Virus record (IMG/VR): IMGVR_UViG_3300037780_000049
Span: 1 to 42,349 of that record
DNA from: a virus
Taxonomy: Duplodnaviria > Caudoviricetes
Reading direction: 5' to 3' (one strand)
Length of the DNA stretch: 42,349 nt
The stretch's first letter is position 1, and each line of letters begins with the position of its first letter. Shown here piece after piece: positions 2,519-24,514 of this stretch. The notes beneath the pieces were generated by a model that had not been told where the DNA came from, made no database searches, and was given only the letters and a program-made list of their open reading frames with translations. The position numbers and the translations under genes were made by a program.

Positions 2519-2709
2519 CCGACCTCCCGACACGCCGCCCGTCCGTGACCGTCACGGGCGAATACCTCTCCGCGTCCGTCTCCTTCGACCCAAGGACGGG
2601 GGCGCCCTGTGAAGTGTTCTTCGTCTCCCGAGGCAAGACAGGCACGGACCTGAACGAAGAGCTTGAAGAGCTATCCATCCAGATCAGCAGGATCATGCAG
2701 CACCGATGA
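2515..2709 (+). CDS. Stand-alone TSCPD-like domain protein (resembles C-terminal region of class II RNR)
   Basis: RRPSVT...SFDPRTGAPCEVF...KTGTDL...SIQISRIMQH pattern; overlaps its neighbours. Confidence 0.6.
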   Translation: MTDLPTRRPSVTVTGEYLSASVSFDPRTGAPCEVFFVSRGKTGTDLNEELEELSIQISRIMQHR

Positions 2710-3254
2710 GCTTTCTCGATAATGCCCTCGACGCCATCATTGCCCGCGAAGGCGGCTATGTGAACGACCCGGCGGACAGGGGCGGGGAGACCCGTTACGG
2801 CATCACGGTCGCCGTTGCCCGACAGAGCGGCTATGACGGACCGATGAAGGATCTGCCGCTGGACCTGGCGAAGAACATCTATGCCGACCAGTATTGGCGC
2901 CGTCCCGGCTTCTCCCGCGTCTCTCAGGTCTCCGAACGCCTTGCAGAGCGGATGCTGGACTGCGGCATCAACATGGGGCCTTCAGTCTCCACCGGTTTCC
3001 TCCAGCGCGCCCTGAACGCCCTGTCACAGAACGGCGAACTCTACGAGATGCTGACCCGCGACGGGGCCTATGGCGACCGCACCCATTCCGCCCTGAGGGC
3101 CTACATACGGGCCCGCGGGCGTTCCGGTGGGGAACAGGTGCTCATCACGGCATTCAACGGCCTTCAGACCCAGCGGTACATCGAGCTGACCGAGGGCCGC
3201 CCACAGAACGCGAGATTCACCTTCGGCTGGCTGAGGCACCGGATATGGCTGTGA
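2706..3254 (+). CDS. Endolysin, glycoside hydrolase family 108 with peptidoglycan-binding domain
   Basis: EGGYVNDPADRGGETRYGIT catalytic motif; LQRALN...DGAYGDRT; C-terminal FTFGWLRHR. Confidence 0.93.
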   Translation: MSFLDNALDAIIAREGGYVNDPADRGGETRYGITVAVARQSGYDGPMKDLPLDLAKNIYADQYWRRPGFSRVSQVSERLAERMLDCGINMGPSVSTGFLQRALNALSQNGELYEMLTRDGAYGDRTHSALRAYIRARGRSGGEQVLITAFNGLQTQRYIELTEGRPQNARFTFGWLRHRIWL

Positions 3255-3526
3255 ACCCGAGGAACGATGAAGGGACGTGGGGTGTCCGACGCATCATCAT
3301 CATTACGACGCTGGCCCTGTGCGCGTTCGTGGTGCTGCGCTTCACCCTGTTCCGGGCAGACGATACGGAAGTGAACTCCACGCTCGTCATGGGCGCCTTT
3401 ACGTTGGCGGGCGCGGTTATCGGCTCGTACGTCTTCGGCGCTGTCTGGGACGACATCGAGGTGCGGAAAGAGCGGCGCCGCGACCGGCTCTATGACCGTT
3501 TCCCCTACGACGATAGGCCCGTGTGA
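3251..3526 (+). CDS. Holin-like protein (2 TM helices)
   Basis: GTG start overlaps the endolysin TGA; two hydrophobic helices; GSYVFGAVWDD; charged tail. Confidence 0.7.
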   Translation: MNPRNDEGTWGVRRIIIITTLALCAFVVLRFTLFRADDTEVNSTLVMGAFTLAGAVIGSYVFGAVWDDIEVRKERRRDRLYDRFPYDDRPV

Positions 3527-3642
3527 TGGAAATCCTTGGCTGGATATTCCTCGTGCTGCTGGTTGTCGGCGCCCTTGGCTGGTGGGTGCTGAAGGCTCTC
3601 GCCAAGAGCTTTTGGTGGGGAGGAGTAGGTGCGGCGAGGTAA
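3526..3642 (+). CDS. Small membrane peptide (38 aa)
   Basis: MEILGWIFLVLLVVGALGWWVLKALAKSFWWGGVGAAR; TGATG coupling to the upstream gene. Confidence 0.5.
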   Translation: MEILGWIFLVLLVVGALGWWVLKALAKSFWWGGVGAAR

Positions 3643-3647
3643 GCATT

Positions 3648-3761
3648 TGGTGCCGACCGGGATACGCCCAATCCAAAACACCGAGAGTCCCTTTGCCGGG
3701 CATTTGCCGACAGGCTTCCCTCTCACCCGCTGCTCTCGCACGTCAGAGACGCCGCCGCACC
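3648..3761 (-). ncRNA. Candidate ~114-nt cloverleaf-like small RNA ending in CCA
   Basis: Extended -10 TGCTATACT 7 nt upstream. 5' GGUGC pairs with 3' GCACC(A). Three internal hairpins; a G-U pair favours the minus strand. Confidence 0.5.
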
Positions 3762-3778
3762 GTGACGGAGTATAGCAG

Positions 3779-4336
3779 ATGCCCGTTCTGATGAAAATCT
3801 TCTGGTGGTGCGTCGCCCACAGGAAGTGGCTCGGCATCGGCCTTGCCGTGCTGGCCGTCCTCGGGGCGCTGTGGTGGTACGGGAGCAGCCGGTATCAGGC
3901 AGGGGAAGCCCACGTACAGGCCAAGTGGGATGCCGACGTAGCCTATCGAGAAAAGGCCTTCCACGCCCTCCAGGCTGGCTACTGGAACCTTCAGCGGCAG
4001 ATGCAGGAAAAGTACAGCATCCTCAGACAGGAGAAAGCCGATGCCGATGCGCGTGTTGCTGATTCTCAGCGCCGTATTGATGACCTCTTGCGCGACCGGC
4101 CCAAGCGGCCCACCAATCTGTCCAGCCCCGCCCCAGCTACCGCCGCTGGAGAAGCTGCCCCCGGTTGTACTGGAAAGCAGCTTTTCGGAGAGGATGGAAC
4201 TGTTCTTAAGCGGGAAGCTGCCAGAGCCGATTCCATCCGCACAGCCCTAGCCCTCTGCCAAGCCCAATATCAGGCAGCCGTGGACGCCTACGAGGCGGCG
4301 CGGGCTATCAACAATGGAGAAACCGATGACCGATAA
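3779..4336 (+). CDS. Rz-like inner-membrane spanin
   Basis: N-terminal TM helix, coiled coil, C-terminal AARADSIRTALALCQAQY. The start may be 3791. Confidence 0.85.
   Translation: MPVLMKIFWWCVAHRKWLGIGLAVLAVLGALWWYGSSRYQAGEAHVQAKWDADVAYREKAFHALQAGYWNLQRQMQEKYSILRQEKADADARVADSQRRIDDLLRDRPKRPTNLSSPAPATAAGEAAPGCTGKQLFGEDGTVLKREAARADSIRTALALCQAQYQAAVDAYEAARAINNGETDDR
4041..4250 (+). CDS. Rz1-like outer-membrane spanin lipoprotein, embedded in Rz in the +1 frame
   Basis: Lipobox LMTSC, Pro-rich mature part with Cys, fully nested in Rz. Confidence 0.8.
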   Translation: MPMRVLLILSAVLMTSCATGPSGPPICPAPPQLPPLEKLPPVVLESSFSERMELFLSGKLPEPIPSAQP

Positions 4337-4445
4337 ATCGTGGACCAACCTGTCCGACCTCCGCTTCATCGCGAAGAAGAAAGAGTTCTGGGCGTCACTC
4401 GCTGCCGCGTTCGTCATCGGGCTGGGCGTGGGGCTGGTGTTCTAG
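4326..4445 (+). CDS. Small C-terminally anchored membrane peptide (39 aa)
   Basis: GGAG RBS; MTDKSWTNLSDLRFIAKKKEFWASLAAAFVIGLGVGLVF. Confidence 0.55.
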   Translation: MTDKSWTNLSDLRFIAKKKEFWASLAAAFVIGLGVGLVF

Positions 4446-4649
4446 AAGCGCCACGACGGGCTTATCCAACGACTTTAGCATCCGCTCCAGTGTCTCACGC
4501 AATTCAGTGACCGATGACCCGACGACATCTATTGGGTCGCTCGTCCAGCTGTGCGGCTCGGTCTGTCCTTCGTCATAATAGCACTCGTGGATGGCGTAGT
4601 ACGGATCTGTTGGGTGGTCGTGCCGCAGAACCCTATGATTCCAATGCAT
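4395..4649 (-). CDS. Hypothetical phage protein
   Basis: GGAG RBS; WNHRV...YAIHECYY...LERMLKSLDKPV pattern typical of small phage proteins. Confidence 0.7.
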   Translation of the reverse strand: MHWNHRVLRHDHPTDPYYAIHECYYDEGQTEPHSWTSDPIDVVGSSVTELRETLERMLKSLDKPVVALLEHQPHAQPDDERGSE

Positions 4650-4842
4650 GAGACTCCTCCGCAGGAATGTTGTTGAGCGCGCCCTCTTCGATCAGCTTCT
4701 GGCACCGTCGGCACGTTACGGCGTCATTGCGGATCGTCCAAGATTCAACAGAGAGATCGACCTTGCGCATGCTTCGCACCCGGCAGAGCGGAATGATGTC
4801 GCCGCGGTCATTTACAAGCTTGGCGCGATGATACTTTGTCAC
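4633..4842 (-). CDS. Hypothetical zinc-binding protein
   Basis: Likely GTG start (TKYHRAKL); H...C...VTCRRC motif; AT-rich upstream region with TGCTATTGT. Confidence 0.55.
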   Translation of the reverse strand: MTKYHRAKLVNDRGDIIPLCRVRSMRKVDLSVESWTIRNDAVTCRRCQKLIEEGALNNIPAEESHALES

Positions 4843-4920
4843 CGGGAACACCTGTGGAACATTTACGAAAATCCGCAGCCAAAACAATAGCATAAACCAC
4901 GCCGCAAAGCGCGGTTTTCT

Positions 4921-4949
4921 TTGCCTTTTCGGCTCCGGAAGGGTATCCT
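4921..4949 (+). promoter_or_regulatory. Sigma70-type promoter
   Basis: TTGCCT-N17-TATCCT, pointing into the hairpin-rich region that starts at 4956. Confidence 0.65.
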
Positions 4950-4955
4950 TGGAAA

Positions 4956-5379
4956 AGATTGAGGCCCGGAGCGGGAAACTCCGAGCCTCGATTTCGAGAC
5001 GAGTCCTTTGGCGGTGTTCCTCGTCTCCGTTGCAGCGGATTTTACCCCATCCCCCGCAATTTCGCAACGCCGATAGATCGCCCGCAGTCGGTGGATCCTG
5101 CTTTCAAATCCATCATGCCTCGGGGGCACTTCACTCGCAAGAGGCTTCCGACCCGGCCAAATGCTCCATGTGGCTATGGCCGTAACTCGCGCATATGTAC
5201 GGCACTCTATTTTCATGGTCGTGGTTCGACCGCCGGGCGGCTGACCCCCGTTACAGGGTACGCGAGCTATACGAGGCTGAAACAGCATGGTCCTAGACCG
5301 CGTGGCCCCAGGCTTCCCTATGAAGCCGCACTCAGGGTAGGGCCGGGATAACGCGGAAGGCGGAGTATGCCCAGCTTCC
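4956..5379 (+). ncRNA. Candidate large structured non-coding RNA (~425 nt)
   Basis: Contiguous helices (4956-4994, 4996-5027, 5028-5069, 5087-5152 multiloop, 5154-5182, 5186-5266, 5298-5356), a GCAA tetraloop, + strand G-U pairs and an upstream promoter. Overlapping ORFs are not protein-like. Confidence 0.6.
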
Positions 5380-5380
5380 A

Positions 5381-5572
5381 TCACTCCCCTCCCGGTGGGG
5401 CTGGCAGGGGCTGCCAGTGGGTGGGGCTCGCCTCGTGGAACCACTGGCCAGCCGACCAATATCCCGACCCGGCATCCCAATATCCAATCTTGGTGAGCCT
5501 CTTCGGGCTATAGTGCAGCAGAACCCGCGTCCCATCCCTCGGCGCCGTCTCTATCGGCATCCACTCACTCAT
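5381..5572 (-). CDS. DUF551-like phage protein
   Basis: WMPIETAPRDGT...PTHWQPLPAPP signature. Confidence 0.85.
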   Translation of the reverse strand: MSEWMPIETAPRDGTRVLLHYSPKRLTKIGYWDAGSGYWSAGQWFHEASPTHWQPLPAPPGGE

Positions 5573-6840: not shown

Positions 6841-6882
6841 CGGGGCGTAGCTCAGTCTGGTAGAGTGCCTGCTTTGGGAGCA
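6841..6882 (+). other. attP core: 5' half of tRNA-Pro(TGG)
   Basis: CGGGGCG-TA-GCTCAGTCTGGTAGAGT-G-CCTGC-TTTGGGA-GCA gives acceptor 5' strand, D arm and anticodon arm. No T arm or 3' end. It lies immediately downstream of int. Confidence 0.85.
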
Positions 6883-6898
6883 TCACAATTATACCGAT

Positions 6899-8080
6899 TT
6901 ACGCCTTTTTCTTCAACGGGATAGGTTCTTCTTGCCCGGGACTGGTGTGATTTTGATGGGACTCGGCCATGCGGGTCCCCATTGCTTCTACGGCCCTGCG
7001 CACATCCTCAACGTCGGTGTGGGCATAGCGCGCGGTTGACGAAATATCCTTGTGCCCGAGCAACATCTGGACCGCCTTCAGGTGCGAGACGCGCAGGAGC
7101 CGGGTTGCTGCAGTGTGGCGCAAATCGTGCCAGCGGAAGTCCGTGACCTGGGCTGTGCGCAGGGCCGCCCGCCAGAGGTTCCCGACCCAGCTTGAAGTGA
7201 TCGGCTGAATGGAGTCCTTGGTGCGCTCGCCCCGCTTCAGGCGGCAGACGTAGGTAAAGACCGCCGTGTCGTGCTTGCCGACCTGCTGGTCTATCAGGGC
7301 GCGCGCGGCGCGGCTCAGCGGGACCGTGTGTATCCGGCCGCCGGGGGTGCGGCTCTTGAGCCGGATGGTCACGACGTTCCGCGCCAGGTCGACCTGAGAC
7401 CAGCGCAGGTTCACGACGGCGGCTTGCCGAAGCCCGGTCATCATCGAAAACAGGAACGGCGCCAGCAACTCGGGTCGCATGGCCTCGATCACGCGCACCA
7501 GATCCTGTTCCTCGGTCGCGGACAGCTCCCGGGTGCGGCCCTCCGGCTCCAGCAGCAGCAGATCGCGCCACTTGATACGGTCGTTGATCTGGCGCTCCCA
7601 TGTCTCGTGGGCGCGGTTGATGACCCGGCGCAGCAGTTCCACGTCACGGTTGACCGTCGACGGGCTGATCCTGGTGCCCTTCCGTCGGGCCTTCTGTACC
7701 TTTCGCCAGGCGACGAACTGCGATATCCGGTCGCTGCCAACCTCGTGCAGCATGGTGGTCTGTCCGAAGAACTCCGCGAGGCGCGCAAGTTGGGTCTCCG
7801 TCTCGACCTGAGCCGGCGTGCCCTCGACCATCTCGTCATAGTAGCGGTCCATTGCGGTCCCTACGGTGATGGGTTCGGCGGCCTTGAACTTGACGCCGCC
7901 GGTTACAGCGAGCAGCGCGTCCCGGGCATCTATCTCTGCCCGGCGCTGTTCTCTGAGCTGCTTTTCCTTGCCTCGCGCCTTTCCTTCATTCGTCTCTCGC
8001 GTGCTGCCAGAAAATCGCTCACCTCGGACCTGGAAGTCGTAGTACCAGTACGGCGAGCCCTTTTTCTGGTAGATGGACAT
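6899..8080 (-). CDS. int: Tyrosine integrase
   Basis: TGLR, HDLRHTAAT, LLGHKDISSTARY catalytic motifs; N-terminal arm-binding beta domain. Confidence 0.95.
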   Translation of the reverse strand: MSIYQKKGSPYWYYDFQVRGERFSGSTRETNEGKARGKEKQLREQRRAEIDARDALLAVTGGVKFKAAEPITVGTAMDRYYDEMVEGTPAQVETETQLARLAEFFGQTTMLHEVGSDRISQFVAWRKVQKARRKGTRISPSTVNRDVELLRRVINRAHETWERQINDRIKWRDLLLLEPEGRTRELSATEEQDLVRVIEAMRPELLAPFLFSMMTGLRQAAVVNLRWSQVDLARNVVTIRLKSRTPGGRIHTVPLSRAARALIDQQVGKHDTAVFTYVCRLKRGERTKDSIQPITSSWVGNLWRAALRTAQVTDFRWHDLRHTAATRLLRVSHLKAVQMLLGHKDISSTARYAHTDVEDVRRAVEAMGTRMAESHQNHTSPGQEEPIPLKKKA

Positions 8081-18110: not shown

Positions 18111-18790
18111 TGGTGCTCCGGGAAAAGAACATGCCCGCCATGCCGTGGTTCGTCAGGGACTACCTGATGGACACCCAGCATCTGACGCGGGACCAGCACG
18201 GCGCCTATCTGCTGCTGCTGGGGACCGCCTGGACGCAGGGTGGGACCCTGCCAGACGACGACATCCAACTCGCTGCAATCGCCAAGGCAACGCCGGAAGA
18301 ATGGGCCGCCATCAAGCCTGTCGTGATGTCGTTCTGGACGCTCACCAAGCGCGGATGGAAACAGAAGCGTTTGATGAAAGAACTTGCGTATGTCACGTCA
18401 CAGCGGGAGCGCCGCAAGAAGGCCGCCCAAGCCGGTGGTCGCGCAAAGGCTTCAAAACAAACAGGAAAACAGGGTGCCAATAGCACACCAAAGGCAGAGC
18501 AAACGAGTGCGATTGCCCTAGCACCCACACCCACACCCACACCCACTCTAGTAGATAAATCTACTGAGGATGCCGCGCTGTACCAGCGCGCAGAGGCGGT
18601 TTTGGGGAAGGGTAGCGGTGGCATGGTCACCCAGCTCAAGCGTGCCAAGGGCGGCAGCATCGAGTTGGCGAGGGCGGCCATCGAGATGGCGGCGACCAAG
18701 CACAAGCCCCGTGAGTACATCGGGGCAATCATCAACAAGGCGGCCGAGGAAGCCGGGCAGCCGACGCGGGGCACGGTCGGTGCGATATGA
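18110..18790 (+). CDS. YdaU/DUF1376-family replication initiator
   Basis: MPWFVRDYLMDTQHLTRDQHGAYLLLL...LPDDD..LAAIA...QKRL. Confidence 0.85.
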   Translation: MVLREKNMPAMPWFVRDYLMDTQHLTRDQHGAYLLLLGTAWTQGGTLPDDDIQLAAIAKATPEEWAAIKPVVMSFWTLTKRGWKQKRLMKELAYVTSQRERRKKAAQAGGRAKASKQTGKQGANSTPKAEQTSAIALAPTPTPTPTLVDKSTEDAALYQRAEAVLGKGSGGMVTQLKRAKGGSIELARAAIEMAATKHKPREYIGAIINKAAEEAGQPTRGTVGAI

Positions 18791-19101
18791 GCCTGGAGGA
18801 ACACGGCATCCGACTGAAGCGCCGCACTCCGGGCAACCACAAGACCGTCTGCCCGAAGTGTTCGGCGCAGCGGAGGAAGAAAACCGACCCGTGCCTTTCG
18901 GTGACCATCGAGGTGGACGGGTCATGGGTGTGCAACTGCCATCACTGCGGATGGGCGATGGGGGAGCGAGATGCTGAACAAGCAACACATGGACTGGCTG
19001 GCAAAGCGCGGGATAGATCCCGAGACCGCGACCAATTACGGGCTGCACAGTCGAGACGACGCGCTCGTCTGGCCGTACAGCGAGCGGGGCGAGGTGGTTA
19101 A
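18787..19101 (+). CDS. Primase zinc-binding domain (separate ORF)
   Basis: CPKCS..RRKKTDPCLSV...CHHCGW, as in T7 gp4/Twinkle N-termini. Confidence 0.75.
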   Translation: MSLEEHGIRLKRRTPGNHKTVCPKCSAQRRKKTDPCLSVTIEVDGSWVCNCHHCGWAMGERDAEQATHGLAGKARDRSRDRDQLRAAQSRRRARLAVQRAGRGG

Positions 19102-22827: not shown

Positions 22828-23259
22828 ATGGCTGTGACGATCCAGGTTTACAACTCGTTCTATGAGAAGCTTACCGAAGGCTTCAACATGGGCTCGGATT
22901 CCTTCAAGGTGATCCTGCTCGACAACAGCCACAGCTTCAACGCGGCGCATACCCAGCTTTCGGACGTGAGCGCGAATGAGATTGCGACGGGCAGTGGCTA
23001 CACCCAGCAGAGCAAGACGCTGGCGAGCGTCACCAGTGCCCAGTCGAGCGGGACATACACCTTCGACGCGGCGGATGTGACGTGGACGGCATCGGGCGGG
23101 GCGATCAGCGCCTATCATGCGGTGATCTACAACGACACGGATGCCAGTGACTCGCTGGTGTGCAGCATCAACTTCGACGGCCAGCAGACGGCGGCGGATG
23201 GGGCGGACTTCAAGCTGATCTGGAACGCCTCGGGCATCTTCACTCTGGCGGCGGCCTAG
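22828..23259 (+). CDS. Virion structural protein (fibre base/decoration type)
   Basis: AGGAGG RBS; FKVILL...EIATGSGYT...FDAADVTWT...AVIY...WNASGIF. Confidence 0.7.
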   Translation: MAVTIQVYNSFYEKLTEGFNMGSDSFKVILLDNSHSFNAAHTQLSDVSANEIATGSGYTQQSKTLASVTSAQSSGTYTFDAADVTWTASGGAISAYHAVIYNDTDASDSLVCSINFDGQQTAADGADFKLIWNASGIFTLAAA

Positions 23260-23441
23260 TCGGGCAGAAACCCGTACATCAGCATATAACGGATGCACAG
23301 TTCAGCCGGGCCGGTGATGGGGATCTCGCCCGCTTCCCAGCGCCTGACAGTGCGGTCGTTTGCCAAGCCCAACTCGGCAGCAAGCCCGGCCTGCGAGAGG
23401 CCGAGCTGCTTACGGGCGGATACGATTTCCTCGGGGGTCAT
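23256..23441 (-). CDS. Small XRE HTH repressor (Aca-like)
   Basis: ARKQLGLSQAGLAAELG...RTVRRWEAGEIPI. Confidence 0.85.
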   Translation of the reverse strand: MTPEEIVSARKQLGLSQAGLAAELGLANDRTVRRWEAGEIPITGPAELCIRYMLMYGFLPD

Positions 23442-23875
23442 GCGGCGGGCCTGATGTAGGACTTGTCCTGCGTGGTGGTGAAGCCGCTTTCGGTGCGGAT
23501 GCGATAGGTCTTGGTGTTGACCTTGACGATTTCGCAGGCGCCGTAATGGATCGAAACGGCTTTGTCGCCAGCCTTGAGGGTCAGGGCATCGCGCACAGCC
23601 TGACGGGCACGTTCAGCGTCGCCCTTCTTGCTATTGGCCATCTTGGTGAGGTTCTTGGCTTTGGCGCGGTGTGCGTCGGCCTTGGCGAGCAGTTCATAGG
23701 CACGGTCGGTGTCCGCGATCTGCTTGGCACGGGCGGGCAGGTGGCCGGGCTGAGTGATGAAGGCCCAATCGTGGTTCTGGTTGTCGAGCAGGGCGCGGGC
23801 TTTGGCTTCGGCGGCATCGGCCCAGGCGTTACGACGGTCAGCGCGGTTGGCCCAAGTGGTCTTGATGTTGGTCAT
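23438..23875 (-). CDS. Hypothetical protein (helical N-terminus loosely DUF3560-like; SH3/KOW-like C-terminus)
   Basis: GGGAG RBS; LKAGDKAV...IVKVNTKTYRI. Confidence 0.75.
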   Translation of the reverse strand: MTNIKTTWANRADRRNAWADAAEAKARALLDNQNHDWAFITQPGHLPARAKQIADTDRAYELLAKADAHRAKAKNLTKMANSKKGDAERARQAVRDALTLKAGDKAVSIHYGACEIVKVNTKTYRIRTESGFTTTQDKSYIRPAA

Positions 23876-23922
23876 TTCAGTCTCCCGTGTCCGGTGGGCC
23901 ATTGGCCCGTTGCGATGATGTT

Positions 23923-23951
23923 AGAATAGGACAATATGTCCGGTATGGCAA
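23923..23951 (-). promoter_or_regulatory. Strong promoter with palindromic operator
   Basis: TTGCCA-N17-TATTCT; GGACA-N3-TGTCC (23929-23941) in the spacer. Confidence 0.75.
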
Positions 23952-23962
23952 CAGGAAAAGTG

Positions 23963-24514
23963 ATGGCACGAGCGACTTTTTTTCTCAGTGCCGGGCGCTG
24001 TGGAACACAGACGCTACGCCATGCCATCAACGTCTTGCGCCCTGACGCTGTGGTGGGGCATGAATCAATCGGGCCTGAGTATGCGGCGTTCGACAAGGCA
24101 CTGGCTCACATGCACGAGGTGGAACAGATCCTCGACGGCGGGCAGGACTACATCGAGACGGGCTGGCCGTGCTTCGTGGCGCTGCCGTTCTACCGTGCCA
24201 TTCATCCGGAGTGGAACATCGTCCACATCGAGCGGCGCTTGCAGGACCAGGCGGCTAGCCTGAACGCACAGGGTCTGTTCGATGGAAGGAACGGCAGGTT
24301 CGCCCCACTTCTCACGGGCCTGACAGCCGAGGAGCACATCATGAACATCACGGCGCTGGCGGTGAGCATGAGAACCGAGGGCATCACATTCACCCAGTTG
24401 TTCGGAGGCTACATGGCGCCGGCCAGGATCGCGGCGATGGTCGGTGTTGACCCGGGCGCCCTGACGGACCAGTTGAGGCACAAGGTCGACGCATACGCAC
24501 CGGAGGCTGTGTGA
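23963..24514 (+). CDS. Sulfotransferase-family (P-loop) protein
   Basis: FFLSAGRCGTQTL (5'-PSB-like), HES, IVHIERR...AASL (3'-PB-like). Confidence 0.65.
   Translation: MARATFFLSAGRCGTQTLRHAINVLRPDAVVGHESIGPEYAAFDKALAHMHEVEQILDGGQDYIETGWPCFVALPFYRAIHPEWNIVHIERRLQDQAASLNAQGLFDGRNGRFAPLLTGLTAEEHIMNITALAVSMRTEGITFTQLFGGYMAPARIAAMVGVDPGALTDQLRHKVDAYAPEAV

Follow-up and report, generated by a model that had tools for sequence, protein, structure and literature searches.

To our knowledge, large and highly conserved bacterial RNAs are few; those that are understood are ribozymes or core machinery, and ROOL, GOLLD, and OLE are still unexplained. Two reports describe ROOL, which is borne by phages and prophages, as a large RNA with many junctions and a pseudoknotted fold, with an average length of 581 nt, about 10 highly conserved positions, a frequent location near tRNAs, and neither a protein partner nor a function known (PMC5737381, PMC12286853). 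GOLLD often exceeds 800 nt and is found in tRNA islands. In the ENE of MALAT1, an internal loop supplies two pyrimidine strands that, together with a purine strand at the 3′ side, guard the RNA end from 3′-5′ exonuclease (PMC6379651). The virus structured-RNA candidates of Fremin 2023, found by covariation in a similar type of source collection, are 29 to 151 nt long (PMC10690425).

The locus described here apparently belongs to an uncatalogued family of large structured RNAs of alphaproteobacterial phages and one plasmid, with a fold unlike that of ROOL or GOLLD. The family shows the features by which large ornate RNAs are recognized (a length above 300 nt, numerous covarying stems, one or more pseudoknots, and no linked gene). 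It resembles ROOL and GOLLD in kind, being large, ornate, carried on mobile elements, and without a known partner (PMC5737381, PMC12286853). In contrast to ROOL, it is about 340 to 450 nt long, has a dense invariant core and no adjoining tRNA, and matches no Rfam model. It is also shorter than GOLLD, again with no Rfam match; an RNA-only oligomeric cage is a further mark of ROOL and GOLLD. Unlike the ENE of eukaryotic RNAs, with its U-rich strands, about ten triples, and A-rich tail, the new RNA would form at most four triples (CUUC/GAAG), proposed from invariance only.

Three of the six supplements and part of the text of the Fremin report hold no match to the new RNA, a fragment of which may stand unnamed among its candidates (PMC10690425). 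The literature searched, mostly papers open without subscription, yielded no description of this RNA and no bacterial counterpart of ENE end protection. The family would add an unrelated class of large RNA with a dense invariant core, carried by phages of several types as well as by a plasmid, and, if the triple helix proposed below for its tail is true, a bacterial counterpart of the ENE device. Because one copy lies on a small plasmid of a cultured, sequenced environmental strain, its expression, structure, partners, and deletion phenotype are testable.

The phage and the RNA locus

The window, meaning the whole stretch of DNA analyzed, is an entire virus record of 42,349 bp. Its capsid protein has 58% identity to that of Sinorhizobium phage phiM5, and its integrase is nearest to those of Sphingopyxis, Sinorhizobium, and Bradyrhizobium phages; we infer that the virus is temperate and podovirus-like and infects an alphaproteobacterium. 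The RNA locus sits in an accessory zone between the lysis genes and the integrase, among small minus-strand genes (Table 1). The two genes of 84 and 67 amino acids that flank it in the window are found beside no other copy of the RNA. The terminator-like hairpin ahead of the RNA would shield its promoter from the late (lysis) operon. Two DNA sequencing runs, one of which may be where the window itself came from, revealed no variant within the locus.

Two further elements were seen nearby. The 5′ half of a tRNA-Pro-like sequence lies just past the integrase stop codon (6841 to 6882), where many contigs join, and is likely the attP core. A 13-bp imperfect inverted repeat (4926 to 4938 and 4966 to 4978) surrounds the −10 box and start site, and could be an operator or a product of chance.

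Table 1. Coordinates of the predicted RNA, its elements, and neighboring genes (window positions unless a locus is named)
Feature	Position	Strand	Remarks
Lysis genes	2706-4336	+	Accessory zone starts after them
Two small flanking genes	4395-4836	−	84 aa, phrog_21321; 67 aa, without family
Terminator-like hairpin and U tract	4896-4920	+	Stem 4901-4915, on both strands; just 5′ of the RNA promoter
Predicted sigma-70-type promoter	4921-4949	+	TTGCCT-17-TATCCT; score 8/12
Predicted RNA, about 416 nt	4956-5371	+	Probable ends, from promoter position and end of conservation
P1 hairpin	4956-4994	+	Sequence variable, covarying
P2 hairpin	4996-5027	+	8 bp, 16-nt loop
Pseudoknot PK1	5010-5082	+	P2 loop 5010-5015 with 5077-5082
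P3 hairpin	5028-5069	+	Loop start conserved in close group only
C-N-C-N-GU linker	5083-5088	+	C5083, C5085, G5087, and U5088 invariant in 8/8
P4 hairpin	5092-5112	+	Covariation
Near-invariant core	5123-5154	+	Stem 5123-5125/5152-5154; 8x8 loop GCACUUCA / GCUUCCGA; cap hairpin 5134-5143
P7 hairpin with inner stem	5154-5182	+	Compensatory changes
P8 domain	5186-5266	+	Closing stem covaries; interior varies by lineage
3′ domain	5287-5356	+	Terminal stem 5298-5303/5351-5356 around 5304-5344
3′ tail	5354-5371	+	Invariant CGGAA(G), UGYC 8-9 nt later; would pair back into core
Convergent DUF551 gene	5381-5572	−	Stop codon 10 nt past RNA end
Integrase gene	6899-8080	−	Other border of the accessory zone
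Small HTH proteins	23256-23441; L355 541-777; L362 9263-9448; L370 18842-19060; L177 1248-1685		

Homologues of the RNA

A preliminary description, made from the window alone, had proposed a large structured RNA gene on the plus strand with its own promoter. All 32 motifs that it named are present (−35 at 4921, −10 at 4944, and helices between 4956 and 5356). Its folding-energy check went the other way: the plus strand of the RNA region gave a z of +0.46, with 63 of 100 shuffles folding equally well, against −2.34 for the minus strand, and local folding gave −0.36 (plus) and −3.1 (minus). Perfect helices of at least 6 bp number 11 in this region, where shuffles average 7.4 and 46 of 300 reach as many. 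As the window alone is not above chance, the case for the RNA had to rest on homologues.

The family comprises 11 distinct sequences in 13 records, of about 340 to 450 nt (344 to 449 nt between probable ends; 383 nt in the plasmid copy) and 41 to 98% identity. Its carriers are podovirus-like, lambdoid, and 115-kb phages and plasmid pSR-7 of the cultured Skermanella rosea; the RNA, described at first as a phage RNA, has a range that spans unrelated phages of several types and reaches beyond them to a plasmid. A 20-base pattern matched 12 metagenome contigs, 2 of them true (L177, E value of 1e-81, and L167, 1e-27, the latter with a second partial copy), and a genome scan gave one match, a true one (L241), identical to L177. 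A pattern of 17 bases, taken from the core that the copies share, had 62 viral matches, of which 6 are true (L217, L220, L233, L231, L239, and L205). A second viral pattern had 111; the 7 accepted were 5 already known and the new L269/L325. A profile of three close copies also detects L217, L220, and L241 and, more weakly, L233 (4e-7), L231 (0.018), L239 (0.022), and L205 (0.11), E values that are flattered because the distant viral members were chosen by exact core bases. These distant sequences are judged members by features outside the pattern, namely, the common offsets of P2 and PK1, the distance to the promoter, and the CGGAAG near the 3′ end. The plasmid copy was reached by short blastn, which led to an unannotated gap of pSR-7; a core model built without this copy scores it at 63.4 bits (E value of 1.8e-14). 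It occupies about 18,710 to 19,100 of NZ_CP086117.1, on the minus strand of that record, and its promoter-like site reads TTGTCA-16-TACGGT.

The core model, with a positive control run alongside, detected no copy in 50 related phage records, 26 of them near complete. The RNA block is likewise absent from a syntenic relative (L165) that shares an exonuclease, a 43-amino-acid gene, and DUF551-type genes with the window. Loci reached through neighboring proteins (80 lysin, 80 capsid, 2 exonuclease, and 0 integrase) yielded no copy of the RNA. In blastn searches, the window region gave 5 short chance matches among 50,697 phage records and 1 among plasmids, the regions of L205, L231, and L233 gave none, core queries gave chance matches in coding genes, and the pSR-7 copy retrieved only itself among 14 records. 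E. coli genomes held no copy. A blastn match in a Rhizobium phage was rejected, as it lies within an open reading frame and the core model gives it no score.

Some sequences were set aside or stand out. L267 (1118 to 1425) and L345 carry GCUUCCGACC, CUAUAC, and the 3′ CGGAAGGCGG at the family spacing, without the cap. They were kept out of the member counts, since the three shared motifs come without a cap and the core model does not detect them; they are a possible very distant or decayed relative. The phage of L267 has little in common with the other carriers. The contig of L241 is filed under a Bifidobacterium metagenome-assembled genome and has spanin genes and a neighboring tRNA at its end; it is probably a mis-binned prophage end.

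Searches with known RNA models gave no sign of a described class. At the gathering score, Rfam 15, whose families include ROOL, GOLLD, OLE, HEARO, RNase P, and group I and II introns, has no match in the window (best E value of 0.67 in the RNA region), in 12 metagenome loci, or in the pSR-7 copy; in seven loci, it returned only a tRNA and a partial sX13 match of 29.7 bits on the opposite strand. ARAGORN found no gene in the window and no tRNA beside the RNA in 14 of 14 loci, the one tRNA of L241 being about 2.4 kb from the RNA. The preliminary description had noted no hallmarks of RNase P, tmRNA, or group I or II introns. A likeness to group II domain V or to tmRNA (including the two-piece form) was also considered, and found no support from Rfam or ARAGORN.

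Covarying helices and a pseudoknot

When five close copies are compared, both partners differ in 17 of 53 pairs, a proportion reached in none of 500 shuffles and far above that of slid partners; in the 3′ half, compared in three copies, both differ in 6 of 40 pairs, as in 1 of 500 shuffles. Shuffle controls on three to five related sequences are not probabilities, and in both tests one helix was one column out of register and so was scored as unpaired. The covarying stems are P1, P2, P4, P7, P8, and the terminal stem. P2 is the more informative case: it is a different stem of 6 to 9 bp around a loop of 13 to 16 nt in each of 10 copies, and a different stem in the pSR-7 copy as well. The closing stem of P8 changes on both sides in 3 of 6 pairs, and the pSR-7 copy has a different 7-bp stem there. 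The outer pairs of the terminal stem vary in step between copies. The hairpin at 5311 to 5327 is optional, being missing in L217 and L220, and the segment 5287 to 5294 pairs with 5345 to 5349 or, alternatively, with the tail.

The sense strand folds with a z of −1.7 to −3.1 in six of eight accepted copies; the window comes out near 0 and L269 at +0.5, and in several copies antisense folding is equal or better. Because of the value near 0 in the window and an antisense z that is often as low, the strand was assigned from the promoters, the GNRA loops of the cap, and G·U changes, the last including exchanges of G·U and A-U in PK1 (window versus L177, and L231 versus L239).

The comparison also revises the long-range pairing. 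The loop of P2, GGCGGU, had been paired with ACCGCC at 5229 to 5234; this forms a run of 6 in the window and of 3 to 4 in the other four close copies, and ACCGCC is missing from the pSR-7 copy. A second proposed loop pairing, UACCC with GGGUA, changes on both sides without compensation in L177 and L217, as read from the alignment. The early model of two kissing loops was dropped, as homologues contradict it. A search pattern built from these loops had no match, and one of ACCGCC plus CGCGAG had three, all in coding sequence. Where the helices GUCGG/CCGAC and UGCC/GGCA had been placed, RNAalifold favors (G/C)GG:CC(C/G), with a compensatory change in three of nine rows.

Covariation in six lineages identifies the segment directly before the C-N-C-N-GU linker as the real partner of this P2 loop. 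The mean predicted duplex energy is −11.9 kcal/mol for own pairs, versus −5.6 for 74 cross-lineage pairs. With the loop taken from the P2 hairpin, the own pairing ranks first of 120 lineage permutations for three choices of representatives; an earlier fixed-window test, which missed the loop of L233, ranked it seventh of 120. PK1 was spotted by eye in the same sequences that were later tested, and the pSR-7 copy alone is out of sample. This copy has a 7-bp PK1, and the own pairing ranks 1 of 720 with six lineages, in a test whose anchor was loosened to CUC and in which 34 of 1,000 shuffled loops pair equally well. Its loop pairs more strongly with the partner of L220 (−11.6) than with its own (−8.5).

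A conserved core and its 3′ tail

Across eight sequences of 41 to 80% identity, 41 columns are invariant, 20 of them in the 32-nt core and 5 in CGGAA, an apparent core invariance that the choice of distant members by exact core bases inflates. The symmetric 8x8 loop of the core is identical in nine of nine copies; in L269 and pSR-7, its first three bases differ, and the CUUC on both sides is kept there too. The 3-bp stem changes from G-C to C-G in three of nine rows, and the cap hairpin has a GNRA loop in most copies.

All full-length accepted members carry CUUC on both sides of the core loop and GAAG in the tail, an ENE-like arrangement toward which the pattern searches are biased. Together with the near-invariant core, the constancy of the 3′ GAAG suggests a tail that is locked in the core. 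In such a fold, GAAG would pair with one CUUC, possibly forming C·G-C and U·A-U triples with the other, as in the ENE; since CUUC and GAAG are both invariant, covariation lends this pairing no support. The UGYC of the tail, found at an offset of 8 to 9 nt in 8 of 10 copies (background of 0.045 per three offsets), may pair with GGCA. Its C/U variation is compatible with a G partner; the pairing fails in L269 and keeps three of four pairs in the pSR-7 copy. The terminal stem needs the CGG of the tail as well.

The core could be read as the active site of a new ribozyme, formed with the captured tail, whose target would be the RNA itself or one of the host. About 41 invariant positions, half of them in one 32-nt element, and the pseudoknots would suit this, as would the plan of a tail entering the core: in RNase P and group I cores, a 3′ segment pairs into an internal conserved strand. 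Rfam has no ribozyme match to it, however, the varied orientation and neighbors leave no exon or splice context, and no conserved substrate or guide was seen, so that we judge a ribozyme to be quite unlikely.

The invariant strand might instead pair with the 16S decoding site and tune host translation. ACUUCAC with the cap arm can form 8 to 11 pairs with E. coli 16S rRNA (1485/1488 to 1494/1495) in eight of eight copies, and the last 8 nt of the other core strand are the same as 23S rRNA 1955 to 1962; we take the matched regions to be the decoding site and helix 71. These matches were found post hoc, with E. coli rRNA as the sole target. Shuffled 7-mers have an exact complement in 16S rRNA in 481 of 5,000 cases and in either rRNA in 1,684 of 5,000, and the 23S identity recurs in 204 of 2,000 shuffles. 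The run also lies partly inside the cap stem, and the tail GAAG accounts for the same bases in cis. We consider an RNA directed at the ribosome very improbable.

Promoter, coding potential, and genomic contexts

The promoter proposed for the RNA is borne out in part. In the window, L167, L217, L220, L233, L205, and the pSR-7 copy, a TTG/−10 pair precedes the core by 191 to 212 nt, and in the shorter L269 by 142 nt, so that spacing is similar in most copies; the score of the window motif is below the cut-off of the promoter scan. The promoter rule holds in 7 of 13 rows scanned and does not hold in L177, L231, and L239. No U tract occurs within 50 nt 3′ of the tail in any of 10 copies.

The spacing of core motifs differs modulo 3 between copies; every one of the six frames is interrupted by stops in L233, L205, and L269; and the minus frame open in the window and L177 is not the one open in L217, L220, and L167. 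None of three frames overlapping the RNA has a PHROG match. With no reading frame common to the copies, this comparison shows the RNA region to be non-coding; what the homologues keep is base-pair covariation. The view that there is no RNA here, and that the locus holds chance GC-rich helices, a minus-strand protein gene (a 205-codon frame, 4863 to 5480), or a DNA site, draws on the z of the window, on a terminator-like minus-strand hairpin (4989 to 4961), and on the minus frame also open in L177. It is largely refuted by the shift of frames between copies, by the stops in distant ones, by the PHROG result, and by the compensatory and G·U changes, and it now seems scarcely tenable. The existence of a structured RNA gene is very likely on the comparative evidence, which partly confirms the first observation, corrects its long-range pairing, and supports its interpretation as a predicted plus-strand transcript of an uncatalogued class.

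Neighbors and orientation vary. The RNA follows spanin genes, lies between ninB-like and HNH genes on the opposite strand, follows an endolysin gene, or precedes a portal gene (L231) or parA (pSR-7); in L217, the RNA cassette lies between two genes that adjoin each other in the window. No protein is common to all seven carrier genomes compared, the best being a small HTH protein in four of seven. In the phage of L233 and in L177, a small HTH gene comes right after the RNA, on the opposite strand; such genes are common in these phages, and their tie to the RNA is unproven. Because the neighbors vary, no protein is shared, and related phage records lack it, the RNA appears to be a rare accessory cassette.

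These contexts bear on whether the RNA could be a large cis leader or riboswitch, in which the GGAAGG of the tail would be a ribosome-binding site sequestered by a CUUCC strand. A start codon lies at an offset of 5 to 8 past the tail in 8 of 10 copies, the L231 portal gene starts there, and parA of pSR-7 is on the same strand. Against this, the next real gene is on the opposite strand in the window, L217, L220, L233, L205, and L269, and the genes downstream of the remaining copies are unrelated, with no consistent class such as a riboswitch would have. The frames past the tail are short or unrelated, the parA start is about 170 nt off, and the NUG is explained by the paired UAU/UGYC tail. A cis role is therefore, in our estimate, very unlikely. 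At L354 8579 onward, in the phage of L231, the RNA tail overlaps the likely start of the portal gene.

Between L217 and L220, the 5′ part has 42 aligned positions that differ and the rest has 1. The 5′ module of P1 to P3 is swapped between two near-identical RNAs, and L167 has both 5′ versions in tandem (815 to 975 and 1026 to 1322), each behind a promoter-like site. This 5′ difference and tandem arrangement, and the varied insertion sites with the promoter included, would also suit an orphan guide or scaffold RNA that needs a protein encoded elsewhere, or a selfish passenger of no help to its carrier. Each genome, however, has one copy, no end repeats were seen around the RNA in the window, the carriers have no nuclease, transposase, or reverse transcriptase in common, and Rfam gave no HEARO or IS605-type match; a guide or passenger is accordingly improbable. 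The flanking genes include no reverse transcriptase or RNA-guided nuclease gene, the mark sought for a retron, DGR, or omega-RNA.

Skermanella is alphaproteobacterial, and one carrier has a GapR-like gene, presumably an alphaproteobacterial marker. On pSR-7 (L375), a ProQ/FinO-family RNA-binding protein is encoded at 23634 to 24311, about 7 kb from the RNA; no homologue was noticed in the phage carriers.

Proposed role of the RNA

Among the roles first suggested (ribozyme, protein sponge, or anti-defense RNA) and that of a trans-acting binder, the binder fits best. By its promoter match, the RNA would be transcribed by the host polymerase from its own host-type promoter; its predicted fold is a compact knot in which the invariant core holds the 3′ tail. 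As the transcript has no intrinsic terminator, capture of the tail would give it a stable end, guarded against 3′ exonucleases. The resulting particle may act in trans as a decoy or modulator of a host factor, to the benefit of its element. A host rather than a phage partner is suggested because the carriers have no candidate protein in common, and the benefit by analogy with other accessory cassettes that have their own promoter. Taken whole, this chain, from a self-promoted RNA of about 420 nt, knotted with its tail locked in the core, to a stable particle made of RNA alone and binding a host factor in trans, is a tentative reading that falls a little short of an even chance. We think it rather unlikely that the invariant core is itself the working site, either as a new ribozyme center or as a grip on the host decoding site, with the swappable 5′ module setting specificity.

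Two other intergenic elements were encountered among the loci. L170, L172, and L176, from one metagenome, share an element of about 150 bp with inverted repeats around position 1500; it has no Rfam match and is unrelated to the RNA save for a 20-base word. In L362 (G002), a second gap (4380 to 4700) has a promoter-like site and hairpins, scores an E value of 0.005 with the family profile, and is possibly another structured RNA.
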